Assembly (NCBI GenBank): GCA_964553015.1
Contig: CAZKJE010000001.1
Location: forward strand, 6,110-70,109
DNA length: 64,000 bases
DNA from: an uncultured Candidatus Saccharibacteria bacterium
Lineage (GTDB): Bacteria > Patescibacteriota > Minisyncoccia > Phycocordibacterales > UBA9973
Reading direction: 5' to 3'
Numbering within the stretch: position 1 is the stretch's first letter; each line of letters starts with the position of its first letter. The notes under the pieces were generated by a model. The model did not search any database. It was not told the DNA's origin and saw only the letters and a program-made list of their open reading frames with translations. Position numbers and translations under genes: made by a program. Below, piece by piece: positions 5,925-27,651 of this stretch.

Positions 5925-6209
5925 TTACTCTATGTAAGATTCCATGATCTTAATTTCAGCTTCTTCTTTATCTACCAAATCCTGACGATTTCCTTGTTTA
6001 AATAATTCTACAGCTTTTTTGCCTTTTTTCACCATACGCCTGATGACCGTGAGCGCCTCTTCATCTGTAAGTATTTCATTGGGCTTTCTGTTTTTACTTA
6101 CAAGCTCATTTGTAAAAGCTGCAGACATGCCTCTGTATGTTTCCAAGCTTATGCTGTCTTTGGCCATCATGGCCCCTTTTATTTTATTTTTTATTTGCTC
6201 ATGCAGCAT
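5925..6209 (-). CDS. GatB/YqeY-domain protein
   Basis: 94 aa. Segments ETYRGMSAAFTNE...EALTVIRRMVKKGKKAVELF match the YqeY family. Confidence 0.65.
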   Translation of the reverse strand: MLHEQIKNKIKGAMMAKDSISLETYRGMSAAFTNELVSKNRKPNEILTDEEALTVIRRMVKKGKKAVELFKQGNRQDLVDKEEAEIKIMESYIE

Positions 6210-6247
6210 ATAAATAAATTATAACAGAAATGTGCTAAAATAGCACT

Positions 6248-6964
6248 ATGCCTAAACTAATATTTTTTGATACAGAGACCACCGGAAATACCGAAAAAGA
6301 TTTTCTCGTTCAGATCGCTTTTAAAACTAGCGATGATACTTTTACTGAACTTTATAAACCACAAACAAAAATTCCGCCCGAGGCTTCGGCGGTTCATCAT
6401 ATCACAAATAAAATGGTAGCTGATAAACCGACTTTTAAAGAAAGTACCGATCAGCCGATCATTAAAAAACTTTTTGAAGACAAAGATTCTGTCGTCGTCG
6501 CTCACAACGCGCCTTTTGACCTAATGATCATAGCCAAAGAAGATATCGTGCCGAAAAAATTCATCTGCACCCTGCGCATCGCCAGAGAACTGGATAAAGA
6601 AGGAAAAATTGAACGATATAACTTGCAATATCTGCGATACTTGCTTGACCTTGATGTGGAAGCGACGGCCCATGATGCTATGGGAGATGTTTTAGTGCTC
6701 GAAAAACTTTTTGACAGGCTAAAAAAGAAAATTATAGAAGAACAAAAAATATCAGAAGAAGAAGCGATACAAAAAATGATAGAAATCTCTTCGCACCCGT
6801 CTATGATGCGCTCTTTTAGTTTTGGCAAGCACAACGGCAAAAAAATTGAAGAAGTACTAGCGACTGATCGCGGATACTTGGAATGGTTACTCGCTCAAAA
6901 GCTCGAAAGCGACCAAATTGAAGACGATTGGATCTACACTCTCCAGCATCATTTAGGAAAATAA
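6248..6964 (+). CDS. DEDDh 3'-5' exonuclease (DnaQ/exonuclease X-like) with a C-terminal GxYxG...EV...YLxWL domain
   Basis: Exo I FFDTETTG, Exo II VVAHNAPFDL, Exo III ATAHDAMGDVL. C-terminus KHNGKKIEEVLATDRGYLEWLL. Confidence 0.7.
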   Translation: MPKLIFFDTETTGNTEKDFLVQIAFKTSDDTFTELYKPQTKIPPEASAVHHITNKMVADKPTFKESTDQPIIKKLFEDKDSVVVAHNAPFDLMIIAKEDIVPKKFICTLRIARELDKEGKIERYNLQYLRYLLDLDVEATAHDAMGDVLVLEKLFDRLKKKIIEEQKISEEEAIQKMIEISSHPSMMRSFSFGKHNGKKIEEVLATDRGYLEWLLAQKLESDQIEDDWIYTLQHHLGK

Positions 6965-6971
6965 GTTTTTC

Positions 6972-7008
6972 TTGACAAAACGTTTTTTATGTGCACAATA
7001 GTATGTGA
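6972..7008 (+). promoter_or_regulatory. Promoter-like element (TTGACA at 6972-6977 with an AT-rich -10 region) upstream of the GC-rich unit
   Basis: cTTGACAaaacgttttttatgtgcacaatagtatgtg. The spacing to the -10 is ambiguous. Confidence 0.3.
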
Positions 7009-7009
7009 A

Positions 7010-7330
7010 ATAAGTTCACTAAACGAGAGGGAGATATTCCGCGAATGCAAATGCATTATGAGGATGTAGTGCTGGAAAGAGGAGATCATGCGATAATGCT
7101 GGAATCGAGAGGAATCCTTGAGGTCATCGTCGTTTTTAAGACGAAGGGACCCGTAGGGTTACTTGGGGTTCCTCAGAACTACAAGGAAGTGTGCAGCCAC
7201 TTCCTCACACAGGCTGCTAAACGCAGTCTTCCGGCCAAGCAGGTCAACTCGATGGTAATTCTCATCGAATAACTTAAACCGCATTCCCCACCGCCGGAGC
7301 CATCGCGCCCGCGCGGTGGTTTCTTTTTGT
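7010..7330 (+). ncRNA. Unclassified GC-rich transcription unit: candidate structured ncRNA or foreign 75-aa ORF
   Basis: About 50% GC against roughly 38-40% in the flanks. Promoter-like TTGACA upstream. Ends in the hairpin CCACCGC...GCGGTGG followed by TTTCTTTTTGT at 7289-7330. Conflicting ORFs on both strands (7045..7272 + and 7159..7356 -). Codon usage is unlike the neighbours. Confidence 0.3.
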
Positions 7331-7350
7331 ATGCATGCTAAAATATAAAT

Positions 7351-8406
7351 ATGCAAAATAGTTTTGAAATAATAATTGGATTAGTAATCGGCGGTATTTT
7401 TGTTTATTTTATTTTCGGCAGAAAGAAAGAAGAGAAGAAAGACGATCTAGGTCTGCAGTTAATTCTCACTCAATTAAACGAACTCTCGCGCACGGTAGAT
7501 AACAAAATCGGCGAATCACACAAACAAGTCAATGAAAGTCTTAAATTTCATTCCAGCGAATCAAATAAAATCATCAGGGACGTCACTGAACGCCTCACCA
7601 GATTGGACGAAACGAATAAACAAGTTATCTCTTTTGCCGATCAATTGCAAAGCTTGGAAAATATTTTAAAGAATCCCAAACAGCGCGGAATACTGGGAGA
7701 ATATTATTTGGAAACACTTCTAAAAAATGTTATGCCACCAGGAAGTTTTGAAATGCAATACAAGCTAGGAAAAAATGAAAATGGTGATGAATTAATACCA
7801 GATGCAGTAATATTTGTAAAGGATAAAATAATTCCAATAGATTCTAAATTCTCATTGGAAAATTATAATCGTATAGTGGATGAGCGAAATCCCGTAGAAA
7901 AAGAAAAATTGGAAAAAACTTTTGAAAACGACTTAAAAGACAGGATTGTTGAAACTTCAAAATATATACACCCAGAATTAGGCACCATGGAATTCGCCTT
8001 TATGTTCATTCCCCATGAAGCAATTTATTATGATTTACTAATAGGAAGAGTCGGTAAGGGTGAAGACGAAAATTTAATTCAACGTGCAGCAAATAAATAC
8101 AAAGTCATTATAGTGTCGCCTACCTCATTTCTTGCCTATCTACAAACAGTATTACAGGGATTAAATGCACTTAAAATTGAAAAAGATGCAGTTGAAATAA
8201 GGAAAAGAGTTGGAGAACTTGGCACACATTTAAAATCTTATGAAAAATATTATAACAGTCTTGGAAATGCTTTAGGAACTGTATTTAATCAATACTCTTT
8301 ATCTGGTAAAGAACTAAAAAAAATAGACAAAGATATTTTACGTATAACTAATTCTTCCCCTGAACTTACGTTGCTTGAGGTAGAAAAACCAAAATTTGAA
8401 GAGTAA
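7351..8406 (+). CDS. rmuC: DNA recombination protein RmuC
   Basis: N-terminal TM, a coiled coil, and an RmuC core (GILGEYYLETLLKNVMP...IPDAVIFV...IDSKFSLENY). Confidence 0.75.
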   Translation: MQNSFEIIIGLVIGGIFVYFIFGRKKEEKKDDLGLQLILTQLNELSRTVDNKIGESHKQVNESLKFHSSESNKIIRDVTERLTRLDETNKQVISFADQLQSLENILKNPKQRGILGEYYLETLLKNVMPPGSFEMQYKLGKNENGDELIPDAVIFVKDKIIPIDSKFSLENYNRIVDERNPVEKEKLEKTFENDLKDRIVETSKYIHPELGTMEFAFMFIPHEAIYYDLLIGRVGKGEDENLIQRAANKYKVIIVSPTSFLAYLQTVLQGLNALKIEKDAVEIRKRVGELGTHLKSYEKYYNSLGNALGTVFNQYSLSGKELKKIDKDILRITNSSPELTLLEVEKPKFEE

Positions 8407-8488
8407 AGCTCTCTAAACGTACAAAGGGGGAGCGCCAATCAGCCGAAGCTTCAAGACACTCCCCCTCTTACGATAACTAACCGACGCT

Positions 8489-8854
8489 TCATGGGCCGTT
8501 CGTACCCCGATTCATCAGGTCGAAGATTGCCTGAGGAACACGTGGAGCAAGATCCCATACATCCCACGGGCAAAGTGGTTTACCCGCCAAGTGTACTTTT
8601 TCTTTGTACTCTTGGTAGGTAATTTCGACTCGTTGCCCCTCTATTTCTTTAAAAGAGGGGTTGTCGAAAAACTTGTACAGCACCACTTCTCCGTTCATAC
8701 CCACAACCAAGATCCGGTATCGGATCATTTCACCTGTCCGCTCGTCCCTGTAACAGAGACAAGCTTTTTTGGGAGAGTTTTCCGACGGCTCGGAAGGCAC
8801 GACAGTCGCACAACCGGACAACAACATCCAAAAAAGAACGATCCAGTATTTCAT
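8489..8854 (-). CDS. Hypothetical lipoprotein (GC-rich islet)
   Basis: Signal peptide with a lipobox LLSGC. GC clearly above the flanks. Confidence 0.4.
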   Translation of the reverse strand: MKYWIVLFWMLLSGCATVVPSEPSENSPKKACLCYRDERTGEMIRYRILVVGMNGEVVLYKFFDNPSFKEIEGQRVEITYQEYKEKVHLAGKPLCPWDVWDLAPRVPQAIFDLMNRGTNGP

Positions 8855-8894
8855 TTCCCTGTTCCCTTTCTTTCGACTACTGTTGATGGTTGTG

Positions 8895-9248
8895 TCAGAT
8901 GCCTGGTTGTTCCACGTAAACCTGAACTTCTTTTTCCTCCTCTCTCCTTCTTAAGGACTTACGTCGTGGTTTCTTAGGAGTCCACTGCTTCTCGATCAGA
9001 TCGGCAACCTCTTTTGCTGTCCTGTTTTCGAAAAGAATTCTCCAAGATTCACGCCGTTTGTCGGTCTCAAGACCTATTACTGAAATGAGATGAAGAACTT
9101 CTGCTGGCAACAGGTTTGAAAAAAGATTGTGCCATGCCGAATGTACTTCATGCGTCAGCATGACAAGGTTCCACTTTTCGTTAGAACCTCCGCGACTCCG
9201 AGGAATTAAGTGGTGTTCGGAAAGACTGTAATTAATTACCAGACTCAA
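8895..9248 (-). CDS. HNH endonuclease
   Basis: The EHHLIPRSRGG...N...HEVHSAWHNLF segment is an HNH motif. 117 aa, GC-rich. Confidence 0.7.
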   Translation of the reverse strand: MSLVINYSLSEHHLIPRSRGGSNEKWNLVMLTHEVHSAWHNLFSNLLPAEVLHLISVIGLETDKRRESWRILFENRTAKEVADLIEKQWTPKKPRRKSLRRREEEKEVQVYVEQPGI

Positions 9249-9379
9249 CTTTTACCCCCCTCCTTTATCGGTTAGTTGTCAAAGTAACTGCGTTAGAATG
9301 CAGACCTACATCCGCCTCTAACAGGTCTGCTATTATTATAACATTTTATAAATATCCTGTCTAGTAAAATTCTATATCC

Positions 9380-9775
9380 TTAATAGTCGTCGCTGTACGG
9401 ATCCCATTTGTTAGTAATAGGTTTTGGTTTTTTTCTTGAATTTTTTTCCAGTTCTCTAGCCTCTTTTGATATTTTAAAAGCTCCAGTCAGTTCATTTAAA
9501 TCTATATTGTAAGCTTGCGCAATGTCCGGAAGCCTACTTTCATCTGGAAATGTTTCACCTGTTTCCCAAAAATTAATTGATGTGGTATCAACCCCGAGTT
9601 TTAATGCCACATTTTTCTTAGTACTTTTTTCTAGTCTGTTTCTTGCCTCTTTTAATTTATCTCCGAAAAGTGTTCTGTCCTCTACTGTAACTTTCTTTTT
9701 TTCCGGAGCTTTATTTAAACTATTAAATCCCGATGACATGCTGTTATTATAACAATAATAAATTATTTTATGCAA
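9380..9775 (-). CDS. XRE-family (Cro/CI-type) HTH transcriptional regulator
   Basis: LKEARNRLEKSTKKNVALKLGVDTTSINFWETGETFP is a classic HTH_3. The real start may be the internal Met at about 9739. Confidence 0.65.
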   Translation of the reverse strand: MHKIIYYCYNNSMSSGFNSLNKAPEKKKVTVEDRTLFGDKLKEARNRLEKSTKKNVALKLGVDTTSINFWETGETFPDESRLPDIAQAYNIDLNELTGAFKISKEARELEKNSRKKPKPITNKWDPYSDDY

Positions 9776-9837
9776 TTTTTAATTCTTGATTCCCTTTACC
9801 CATACTAGCGTAAACTAATTGACAGAAGTGCTGGGAC

Positions 9838-10209
9838 ATGACATACTCTTTTTTAGAATTTTCGTGGACAACAAACACACAGTACAAACTCTTAGGAGGG
9901 TTTATGAGGATAGAGGAAGCAGAATTTCGGTTTGTGCTGGAATCCCAGCTTGACGGTTTCTGGGATCGTGCTTTGGTGGTTTTTCGGAACTACCATAGTA
10001 AAAACTTGGAACAAAAGGTGGTGAATCTGATTATTGAGGCAGTTGAACGAAAAAAGGTAGATGTGGTGCTTAAGATGATGGAAGTGTACTACGACACCTA
10101 CCTGATGCCCAACGGAAAAACCCCCAGCCCAGGTGTGGACGAGTTGGAGAAAGTGTTGTTGATCATCAGGACACAGGTCCTTTGCTTACCTCCGAATTCG
10201 TACATATAG
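9838..10209 (+). CDS. Hypothetical protein (island cargo)
   Basis: 123-aa ORF with moderately elevated GC and no recognisable motif. Confidence 0.35.
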   Translation: MTYSFLEFSWTTNTQYKLLGGFMRIEEAEFRFVLESQLDGFWDRALVVFRNYHSKNLEQKVVNLIIEAVERKKVDVVLKMMEVYYDTYLMPNGKTPSPGVDELEKVLLIIRTQVLCLPPNSYI

Positions 10210-10316
10210 GTAAGCACCACATGTCATAACCCCCGCCGTGAGTAATCCCGGCGGGACGGGGCCAAGAGAAGTTCTTTTTTAAAATTTGTATAAATGCGAA
10301 CCGCGAGGTTCGTGAC

Positions 10317-10349
10317 AACCTCGTGAAAAAAACTGCGCGAGGTTTTTTT
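10317..10349 (+). terminator. Rho-independent terminator
   Basis: aacctcg-tgaaaaaaactgcg-cgaggtt followed by TTTTT. Confidence 0.55.
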
Positions 10350-10409
10350 ATGCTAAAAATTTTTTGATTTTATTACTAAAAATGTTATATTTTTTCTGTA
10401 GGCATTTTC

Positions 10410-10481
10410 GGCTCTATCGTCTAACGGTTAGGACATATCCTTCTCAAGGATAGAATCGCGGTTCGATTCCGCGTAGAGTCA
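10410..10481 (+). tRNA. tRNA-Glu (anticodon CUC)
   Basis: Hand-folded. Acceptor GGCTCTA/TAGAGTC, D-stem GTC/GAC, anticodon stem TATCC/GGATA with loop TTCTCAA, T-arm CGCGG-TTCGATT-CCGCG, discriminator A, no encoded CCA. The msrA stop codon overlaps the last 3 nt on the opposite strand. Confidence 0.85.
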
Positions 10482-10964
10482 CAAATAGCTGTCAAACCAG
10501 ATAGCATGACATGTATATCCCGCGGGATTTTTTTGGAGATAATCCTGATGATATTCCTCTGCTTCGTAAAATGTATCTAACGGCTCTATAGTAGTGACCA
10601 CCTTATTCGGCCATCTGCCGGATTTGTTTACAATATCTATAAAATTTTCCGCTTCTTTTTTCTCTTCATCATTTCCGTAAAAAATAGCAGAACGATACGA
10701 GGTTCCTCTGTCGTTCCCCTGCTGATTTAGGGTTGTCGGATTATGGATCTGAAAGAAAAAATCCAGCAGTTTTTTGTAAGAAGTTTTTGTGTTGTCGTAT
10801 TCTATCTCCACGGCTTCGGCATGGCCCTCATGATTTTCATATGTAGGATTATTCACAGATCCGCCGGTATAGCCCACCCGGCTCTTCACCGCACCGGGCT
10901 GTTTCCGGATTAAATCCTGCAATCCCCAGAAGCATCCTCCTGCTAAAATTATTTTCTTGATCAT
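10479..10964 (-). CDS. msrA: Peptide methionine sulfoxide reductase A
   Basis: LAGGCFWG active-site motif near the N-terminus. 161 aa. Confidence 0.85.
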
Positions 10965-22659: not shown

Positions 22660-23316
22660 TCAGGCCTTCAAGGATTCCAGGTTCAGAATCCGTGAGGCAC
22701 CGACGCCGACATAACTGGTGCGGTAGTCGCTCCAATTGTAGACGCTGAGGCCGTGCTCAGAGAAGCCACCGACACACGAAACGTCACCAGCGCCGGCCGT
22801 AGCAGTCTTCACCGTCCTTTCCGAGCACGCCGCCCAAAAATTCTGGTTGGACCGTTTGCCGGTCTTTCGAAAAACGAGGATGTTTTTCGTTACCTCGGCT
22901 ATGGTCGTCGGCACTTCGTAGCCTTCTGGGAGCAACATCACCTGCTCTTCGAGCGTCTTGTACCTAGAGTCGGGAACGATGTCCCGGAGCATGATGTACA
23001 ACCGCGGTTCTAGTACTGCGATGTCCGTGTGGGGCTGTCCCGCGTGCCACGGATTCGTGTTGAAGTAGAACTTCGGCTGACCCGAGAACGGATGCAACTC
23101 GAGCCACTTCGCGACCGTGAGCGGATCGCCGTTGATGTCCGGCACGCCCATGAAAGCAAAGTGAGTATCTGCGACAAGCTTGCCCTTGTGGAAAGGGCAG
23201 GTGCTCATCAGAATTTCTTCGACCTGCGGGTCTAACTTCTCGGTCGGGCCGTAGTAGCTAGCCCAGTATCCCAACCCCCATACCCGAACGATGCCCTGCT
23301 GTATTGTCGTTGTCAT
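22660..23316 (-). CDS. Hypothetical protein, GC-rich orphan (likely horizontally acquired)
   Basis: 218 aa with no recognisable motif. About 55% GC in a roughly 40% GC context. Flanked by long hairpins. Confidence 0.4.
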   Translation of the reverse strand: MTTTIQQGIVRVWGLGYWASYYGPTEKLDPQVEEILMSTCPFHKGKLVADTHFAFMGVPDINGDPLTVAKWLELHPFSGQPKFYFNTNPWHAGQPHTDIAVLEPRLYIMLRDIVPDSRYKTLEEQVMLLPEGYEVPTTIAEVTKNILVFRKTGKRSNQNFWAACSERTVKTATAGAGDVSCVGGFSEHGLSVYNWSDYRTSYVGVGASRILNLESLKA

Positions 23317-27312: not shown

Positions 27313-27651
27313 TCAGCAGTCAGATTCGGAAAGAACAAGAACGACATCCAGCATAGCTTGTCTTTCCATGACAGTGACAACCTCCTCCAGCTGCTCATAT
27401 CTGGGCTCCGCACACGCCCAGATCACCTGGCCCTTGTGGTTGAGGATGAACAAGTACGGGTAGCCGGCTATCTGCCTGTTGCCAAACTTGCCCCTGTTGC
27501 AGGCCTCTAGCCAAAGCTTTTCAGCCTCTGGAGACTCCGGAACCTCTTCTCGTACATCGTTTGGGTAATCCTGTAGGAAATCTATGACTCTCCGAGTGTG
27601 ATAACAGGTTTCGGAACCTTCCGGGTGCGGAATAAATACAATGTGCTTCAT
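27313..27651 (-). CDS. Hypothetical protein, GC-rich orphan (possible thioredoxin-like fold)
   Basis: 112 aa, about 52% GC. Thioredoxin-like C-terminal pattern YPYLFILNHKGQVIWA. No canonical CxxC. Confidence 0.3.
   Translation of the reverse strand: MKHIVFIPHPEGSETCYHTRRVIDFLQDYPNDVREEVPESPEAEKLWLEACNRGKFGNRQIAGYPYLFILNHKGQVIWACAEPRYEQLEEVVTVMERQAMLDVVLVLSESDC

Follow-up and report, generated by a model that had tools for sequence, protein, structure and literature searches.

A GC-rich segment between exo and rmuC is very probably a self-contained gene for a small, lineage-restricted protein

Results

Organization of the exo-rmuC locus

The window analyzed here is a 64,000-nucleotide (nt) stretch of contig CAZKJE010000001.1 (assembly GCA_964553015.1), and our subject is a GC-rich segment of it, at 6966-7335, that separates the exonuclease gene exo from rmuC (Table 1). 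We consider this segment to be very probably a self-contained monocistronic gene for a small, lineage-restricted and fast-evolving protein, and not a structured RNA. A first-pass annotation had described it as a promoter-to-terminator unit of about 50% GC and had proposed either a structured noncoding RNA (ncRNA) or a horizontally acquired small gene. Its description is borne out. The GC content in 200-nt windows is 0.455-0.515 across 7000-7299, compared with 0.31-0.39 in exo and rmuC, and the promoter-like element, the hairpin with its T-run and the open reading frames (ORFs) on both strands are all present where they had been placed.

The putative promoter, with a match at 10 of 12 positions, is the best site found by the promoter scan between 6000 and 8600, and transcription would start near position 7006. 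Its -10 region, TGTGCACAATAGTA, aligns with TGTGTATAATAATA, TGTGTAGGATAGTA and GTGTTATAATAAAAGTA in the homologous inserts of three related loci (L083, L091 and L094, respectively; described below), directly 3' of the exo stop codon. The element probably functions as a promoter. The small hairpin at the predicted 5' end may, for example, stabilize the mRNA; L083 and L094 have another small GC hairpin at the equivalent position. Each of the two candidate start codons of the small ORF follows a Shine-Dalgarno (SD)-like motif, and the homologous ORFs are preceded by GGGGAG, GGGAG, GGAGGG or GAGGAGG. At the other end of the unit, a GC-rich hairpin is directly followed by a U-run, which is the signature of an intrinsic (Rho-independent) terminator. 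The terminator scan calls it at 7296-7323, and the hairpin is kept in the homologous inserts, with compensatory changes in 4 of 8 pairs across five inserts.

The ORF on the opposite strand extends into the rmuC start, and neither a promoter nor a terminator belongs to it. The antisense frames of the L087-type insert are open for 51 codons at most. We judged the antisense ORF to be spurious.

Table 1. Positions of the features of the segment, its neighbours and other parts of the window
Feature	Position	Strand	Details	Source or context
exo, DEDDh / ExoX-like 3'-5' exonuclease	6248-6964	+	238 amino acids (aa); Pfam RNase_T 1e-17, ExoX-like_C 4e-11	left border
sigma-70-type promoter match	6972-6999	+	TTGACA 6972-6977, 16-nt spacer, CACAAT 6994-6999	promoter scan
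small 5'-end hairpin	7005-7019	+	GTGAA-ATAAG-TTCAC; in the putative 5' untranslated region	minimum free energy (MFE) and centroid folds
purine-rich SD-like motif	7025-7034	+	GAGAGGGAGA; 11 nt before ATG 7045	read from sequence
small coding sequence	7045-7272	+	75 aa from ATG 7045; stop TAA 7270-7272	ORF list
second SD-like motif	7060-7064	+	GAGGA; 4 nt before GTG 7069	read from sequence
antisense ORF (judged spurious)	7159-7356	-	65 aa	ORF list
intrinsic terminator	7288-7330	+	CCACCGC 7288-7294 / GCGGTGG 7313-7319, then TTTCTTTTTGT 7320-7330	
rmuC extended -10 promoter	7336-7344	+	TGCTAAAAT; 6 nt before rmuC ATG 7351	right border, outside the small-gene unit
rmuC	7351-8406	+	351 aa; Pfam RmuC 2e-52	downstream neighbour
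lipoprotein-like orphan ORF	8489-8854	-		second GC-rich block
small HNH endonuclease	8895-9248	-		second GC-rich block
XRE-type helix-turn-helix protein	9380-9775	-		second GC-rich block
orphan ORF rich in GC at third codon positions (GC3)	9838-10209	+		second GC-rich block
orphan ORF	22660-23316	-	GC3 0.73; no Pfam match	
orphan ORF	27313-27651	-	GC3 0.59; no Pfam match; strong SD motif GAGAGGAGG	

Homologous inserts in the exo-rmuC slot

Eighty species-representative related loci were fetched through RmuC (GTDB, Paceibacteria). In most of them exo lies just upstream of rmuC, and in 25 of the 49 loci with both genes the gap is only 1-26 nt; the other loci hold variable cargo. Searches with the element by blastn and nhmmer gave no nucleotide match in loci L001-L081, a set that lacks the homologues found later. 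These homologues surfaced through exo-based look-ups of the nearest relatives (exo 84-88% identity). The inserts are 421 nt in L083, 376 nt in L087-L090, 385 nt in L091-L093 and 355 nt in L094-L095, and their GC content is 0.44-0.49; the loci that were checked have 0.39-0.42. Within each of the groups L087-L090, L091-L093 and L094-L095, the close variants carry identical inserts, and with that of the window we compared five insert types.

All types have the same layout, namely a promoter, a purine-rich SD-like motif, a plus-strand ORF of 67-84 aa, a terminator and the leaderless promoter of rmuC, and each ORF stops shortly before the terminator. Their ends align across types, with the -10 region after the exo stop at one end and the terminator, T-run and rmuC promoter at the other. 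The small proteins are about 20-30% identical where exo is 82-88% identical. Among the L087-L090 inserts there are 0/376 differences, while up to ~2% of sites vary in the adjacent exo and rmuC. These four contigs come from different samples, and one pair is strongly different upstream of exo. L084-L086 lack the insert and L096-L097 retain an 84-nt remnant. Because these loci have no intact copy, the small gene is dispensable, and it has been lost in at least one relative.

The rmuC genes fall into two allele groups that are only ~57% identical. Those of the window, L087 and L091 are 76-89% identical, and those of L083 and L094 are 88% identical; rmuC of L083, L094 and L096 is only 55-61% identical to the window/L087/L091 group, and exo is 82-88% identical across all. 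The similarities among the small proteins (window with L094, L083 with L091) follow neither the exo nor the rmuC pattern. This discordance with both flanks suggests recombination breakpoints around the slot. Elsewhere (L002-L069), the exo-rmuC junction is a hotspot, with 150-1800 nt of unrelated cargo, mostly minus-strand ORFs of 56-283 aa. A conserved ORF of ~200 aa recurs at the junctions of L004, L012 and L024. In L013, the plus strand carries a tandem pair of ORFs (72-73 aa) that appear to be paralogues and have SD motifs of their own and a terminator.

Coding evidence for the small ORF

Each of the five insert types has a plus-strand ORF of 67-84 aa, flanked by the SD-like motif and the terminator. 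The chance of an ORF this long is 0.03-0.07 per insert type in dinucleotide shuffles, and the five types are almost unrelated at the nucleotide level; chance ORFs in all five jointly are unlikely. Both start codons of the window ORF are possible. ATG 7045 is positionally homologous to the ATG of L091. The alternative GTG 7069 gives a 67-aa protein with a homologue-like length and N-terminus (ML..G), which shares the length of 67 aa and the C-terminal LIE with the L094 protein. In BLASTP, window residues 9-75 align end to end with L094 residues 1-67.

The codon positions of the ORFs differ in composition in the manner of protein-coding genes. The GC contents at positions 1, 2 and 3 (GC1, GC2 and GC3) are 0.59, 0.33 and 0.58 in the window ORF and 0.49-0.66, 0.30-0.47 and 0.48-0.64 in the five ORFs, with GC1 above GC2 in every one. 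G makes up 0.30-0.40 of first positions, and T, pooled over the five, 0.13. In the chi-square test on codon positions, this three-base periodicity is significant for the window (p = 0.006), L083 (2e-4), L087 (2.5e-4), L091 (3e-4) and the pooled ORFs (4e-16); L094 gave 0.2. The codon usage of the window ORF had been called atypical, and indeed its GC3 is 0.55-0.58, whereas the mean of host genes in the window is 0.41 ± 0.09. The high GC content of the segment arises because codon positions 1 and 3 are GC-rich, as in all homologues. Because all homologues are GC3-rich and sit in the same slot, the GC excess is a stable property of the family and not the mark of a recent transfer.

Conservation was found at the amino-acid level and in one frame. 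Against shuffled sequences, the protein similarity reached z = 5.9 for the 67-aa window form and L094 (0/3000 shuffles), 8.7 for L083 and L091 (0/3000), 3.9 for L083 and L094 (1/3000) and 3.1 for the window and L083 (15/3000). When these four pairs were examined frame by frame, the annotated frame gave z = 5.6, 9.2, 4.0 and 2.75, whereas the two other forward and three reverse frames gave z ≤ 3.1; global nucleotide alignments of the pairs gave z = 0.5-6.5. In codon alignments guided by the proteins, identity is highest at codon position 2 in 9 of 10 pairs and, at position 3, mostly close to random (for L083 and L091, 26, 45 and 21 of 74 at positions 1, 2 and 3), a pattern that is consistent with coding, although the protein guidance biases this test.

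The AlphaFold2 model from the single sequence points in the same direction. The sense 75-aa ORF is predicted to adopt a beta-beta-beta-alpha-beta topology with a predicted local distance difference test score (pLDDT) of 74.1 and a predicted template modelling score (pTM) of 0.59, and the antisense ORF, which served as a control, reaches 50.9 and 0.33. The predicted fold favours the sense ORF over the antisense ORF. With periodicity, frame-specific conservation and a confidently predicted fold, the small gene of the first-pass annotation is retained; its description as horizontally acquired finds no support, given the same slot, the homologous flanks and the GC3 richness of all members.

Evidence that weighs against a small protein gene, and the RNA alternatives

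A number of observations qualify this assignment or count against it. In the promoter scan, 9 sites with at least 9/12 matches occur in 6000-8600 as compared with 6.7 ± 2.3 in shuffled sequence, and because this count is near the shuffle level the promoter match alone is not decisive. The 11-nt spacing from the first SD-like motif to ATG 7045 is long, and the host seldom uses SD motifs. A plus-strand ORF as long as that of the window appears in 7% of dinucleotide shuffles and is not significant by itself. The significant pairwise result for the window rests on the 67-aa start, which was picked after the local alignment had been seen, and when the 75-aa form was used in a leave-one-out hidden Markov model (HMM) test, the window ORF did not reach significance (213/2000 shuffles). 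The L087-type ORF has no detectable similarity to the other four. In a further contig with exo 87% identical (P0006; JGI 3300050046), the slot is 354 nt long and an 80-aa minus-strand gene is called in it, which may be an antisense miscall of this family or other cargo.

The protein databases likewise offered no support. The 75-aa ORF matches only itself among 5.8 billion protein clusters, and an exhaustive phmmer search found no significant homologue among 1.84 billion cluster representatives. Neither the window ORF nor the family profiles matched anything in Pfam, NCBIfam, PHROG, PADLOC or the PDB sequences, and Foldseek with the model returned nothing at E < 1e-3 in PDB or BFVD (all E ≥ 0.002). 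Finally, the region 7000-7335 folds more stably than its shuffles, with z = -4.2 including the terminator and -2.8 without it.

This last point, together with the arrangement as an independent GC-rich promoter-to-terminator unit in an AT-rich genome and the orphan status of the ORF, speaks for a structured ncRNA gene of ~320 nt from a novel family outside Rfam, which would use the same promoter and terminator and in which the ORF would be incidental. The folding of homologous inserts is mixed, with z = -4.0 for the L083 counterpart but only -1.3 for that of L087, and no architecture is common to them; without the terminator, the opposite strand of the window segment also reaches -1.9. The RNAalifold consensus of the five inserts has 19 pairs, of which 8 belong to the terminator stem, 6 join a purine-rich segment (columns 180-185) to the T-run and 5 form a weak internal hairpin. 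Its energy is -14.6 kcal/mol over 473 columns, and the interior is poorly aligned, so that some structure there may have escaped it. The pairing of the purine-rich motif with the T-run, which also appears in the MFE fold, is not convincingly conserved and we consider it an artefact of the U-tail. Across the five inserts, the terminator hairpin is the only conserved structure, and it has compensatory changes.

Known RNA families did not appear either. At the gathering score, Rfam detected only tRNAs in the whole window. The check with cmscan that had been suggested for this region was run permissively (E ≤ 10, 6850-7450) and gave a single chance match to a long noncoding RNA (E = 6.1). ARAGORN found seven tRNAs and no transfer-messenger RNA (tmRNA) over the window. 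The first-pass annotation had seen no hallmarks of RNase P, signal recognition particle (SRP) RNA or tmRNA, and Rfam agrees with it, as does ARAGORN for tmRNA. Its structured ncRNA, by contrast, is not upheld: Rfam and ARAGORN provide no family, the conserved structure is limited to the terminator hairpin, and the frame-specific amino-acid conservation and three-base periodicity point to protein. We therefore consider a novel ncRNA gene very unlikely.

A further alternative is that the transcript has two functions, as a peptide message and a small RNA, or that it acts in cis on rmuC, as a leader with a regulatory role or as an attenuator. The terminator ends ~20 nt before rmuC and the transcript is moderately structured, both of which would suit such roles. 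However, nearly all related loci (L002-L097) have TG(C/T)TAAAAT 5-7 nt upstream of the rmuC ATG, across gaps from 4 nt to 1.8 kb, and since this TGnTAAAAT -10 box is kept with an insert or with none, no read-through is needed. Rfam shows no family of riboswitches, T-boxes or leaders at 6850-7450, and no antiterminator-like alternative helix is conserved in the five inserts. In the short-gap genomes, the rmuC promoter lies directly 3' of exo or overlaps the exo end. The rmuC mRNA is probably leaderless and transcribed from its own promoter downstream of the terminator, to judge from this motif, and because that promoter lies 3' of the terminator we dismissed the element as an rmuC leader. We consider a dual-function or cis-acting RNA extremely unlikely.

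Database searches with the small proteins

The public assembly already lists the small ORF as an unnamed protein, and the contig itself also occurs in SRR12113420. When the small proteins of L083 and L087 were concatenated and searched, no match was obtained, not even to themselves, and these ORFs are apparently absent from that database. A scan of viral contigs found nothing, and phage tblastn and plasmid blastn searches found nothing meaningful. No PADLOC or PHROG family was detected for any of the five small proteins; the flanking genes match only generic models of this type, DEDDh for exo and a partner of defence reverse transcriptases for RmuC. An extra phmmer match (P0002) is a tandem-repeat protein of eukaryotic appearance, and since its 8 repeats inflate the score we rejected it.

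A metagenome scan with the 8-mer seed GVPQNYKE over 241 million records found only a locus encoding a Sel1-repeat protein (L082). Residues 41-74 of the window ORF (window 7165-7266) are 44% identical over 34 aa to one repeat of this protein, and the L094 ORF resembles it more faintly. These likenesses lend some weight to the idea that the ORF is a decayed fragment or a chance frame, either a horizontally acquired remnant of higher GC, for example of a Sel1-repeat protein, or a non-functional spacer in a recombination-prone slot; unrelated cargo in the slot elsewhere, the loss of the gene in L096 and the extremely fast evolution of the family would fit as well. However, the match was seeded by an exact 8-mer among a very large number of records, single-repeat phmmer scores do not exceed 13 bits, and the high Sel1 totals are sums over 13-14 repeats. 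Pfam does not match the window or L094 ORF to Sel1 at E ≤ 10, and L083 and L091 show no Sel1 motif at all. As one repeat, the motif reaches no significance threshold, and we judged the L082 match to be due to the seed by chance or to a likeness at the motif level. Moreover, at least five diverged versions keep an intact ORF, an SD-like motif, a promoter and a terminator and show coding periodicity, and one insert is unchanged among four strains with differing flanks. A decayed or chance ORF is therefore extremely unlikely.

Translation style of the host and other regions of the window

Among the ORFs of at least 90 aa in the window, a TAnWAT hexamer precedes the start codon by 4-12 nt in 25 of 65 genes, as compared with 4% of random positions, and SD-like cores occur in 6 of the 65 against a background of 8%. 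Leaderless initiation appears to be the main mode of translation in this organism. The small gene has a leader of 40-60 nt with an SD-like motif, and the leader, the motif and the high GC3 are common to its homologues. Two other orphan ORFs of the window, at 22660-23316 and 27313-27651, are like the small gene in codon style, not in sequence.

A second GC-rich block (0.44-0.52) extends downstream of rmuC over 8400-10482 and ends at a tRNA-Glu gene (10410-10482). Its four ORFs are given in Table 1. The block may be what is left of an integrated element; the region downstream of rmuC in L083 encodes a large serine recombinase.

Discussion

We propose that a monocistronic gene for a small protein has been inserted here between exo and rmuC, which normally abut, in what appears to be a Nomurabacteria/Paceibacteria genome of the candidate phyla radiation (CPR). 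As predicted from the sequence, a sigma-70-type promoter at 6972-6999 would start a transcript of ~320 nt with a leader of 40-60 nt that carries a purine-rich ribosome-binding motif. The 75-aa ORF, or its 67-aa form from GTG 7069, would be translated into a compact beta-beta-beta-alpha-beta protein, and the GC-rich intrinsic terminator at 7288-7330 would end the transcript just before the leaderless promoter of rmuC. With this terminator and a separate rmuC promoter, the small gene would be insulated from both of its neighbours. The coding signatures, the synteny and the homology of the inserts are observed, and promoter use, start codon, expression and role are expected from them.

The family is most likely distributed over only a few related Nomurabacteria. 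We suggest, with low confidence, that the product is an accessory protein tied to the neighbouring DNA-processing enzymes or that it has a conflict or variable-region function. It is also conceivable, though rather doubtful, that the slot hosts a hypervariable lineage-specific small-protein family, for which a diversifying or conflict locus and a young gene born from an intergenic hotspot would fit equally. In the conflict version, a modulator or inhibitor of the adjacent nucleases, for example, or a partner in CPR-host or phage interplay would fit.

The analysis removes a false ncRNA candidate and closes the structured-RNA lead at 6966-7335. It also indicates that a GC-rich island from promoter to terminator in an AT-rich CPR genome may be a small, GC3-rich protein gene and not an RNA gene. 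The new small-protein family has at least four detectably related members and one positional analogue; it is SD-led in a mostly leaderless host and occupies a recombination-prone slot between two DNA-processing genes. Should the family turn out to act on ExoX or RmuC as a modulator, or to evolve under diversifying selection, it would give a handle on the little-understood biology of RmuC and on the accessory genes of CPR bacteria. For now, it is best described as an ordinary hypothetical gene, small and with a few unusual traits.

Comparison with known systems

The unit resembles a tmRNA gene in being a GC-rich independent transcription unit of ~320-360 nt and in the short frame ending in ANANAL and a stop codon, which had been thought faintly tag-like and is indeed present (GCG AAT GCA AAT GCA TTA TGA, 7041-7061). 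It differs in that its 3' hairpin is an ordinary terminator common to the homologous inserts. It has no tRNA-like domain, T-arm or CCA-proximal acceptor, and neither ARAGORN nor the Rfam tmRNA models find anything; a tmRNA was rejected. RNase P, SRP RNA and 6S RNA were rejected as well, as cmscan of 6850-7450 gave no match to their covariance models, a result that is weaker for 6S RNA because of the limited sensitivity of the model.

At the protein level, GVPQNYKEVCSHFLTQAAK of the window ORF and FPPTYLEAVEWIRERAADKG of L094 are similar to the core of the Sel1 repeat (PF08238), G-V-P-Q-D-Y-x-E-A-x-x-W-Y-x-K-A-A-x-Q-G. The motif, GVPQ-D/N-YKEA..W...AA.QG, spans residues 33-55 in L094, and a one-residue insertion is common to L094 and the window ORF. 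Unlike Sel1 proteins, the window ORF has a single copy, which includes this insertion and has no Pfam match, and the model would place a beta-strand after the helix, where Sel1 has a second helix. We regard the likeness as a motif-level resemblance and not as membership.

The predicted topology of the window protein would also fit the minimal fold of PD-(D/E)XK nucleases. The weak Foldseek neighbours include the nicking endonuclease Nt.BspD6I, a phage protein annotated as a member of the PD-(D/E)XK nuclease superfamily, the R2 endonuclease domain and XisH, the last two of which we take to be PD-(D/E)XK folds; the template modelling (TM) scores are 0.49-0.56, except for XisH (0.31), and the E-values are 0.03-0.14. 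L083 and L091 have D...(D/E)xK-like residues. In contrast, neither the window protein (R-G, K-T-K) nor L094 conserves the candidate catalytic residues, and a complete domain would need more than 67 aa. As the window protein does not conserve these residues, we rejected membership and treat the similarity as a lead only.

The closest comparison is with the ORFans of CPR bacteria (Patescibacteria). Like them, the small gene consists of a short ORF that has its own promoter and terminator, matches no domain, is confined to a few related metagenome-assembled genomes and diverges fast. In contrast to most host genes, it is SD-led and not leaderless; its GC3 of 0.58 is well above the host mean, and its position between exo and rmuC is fixed.

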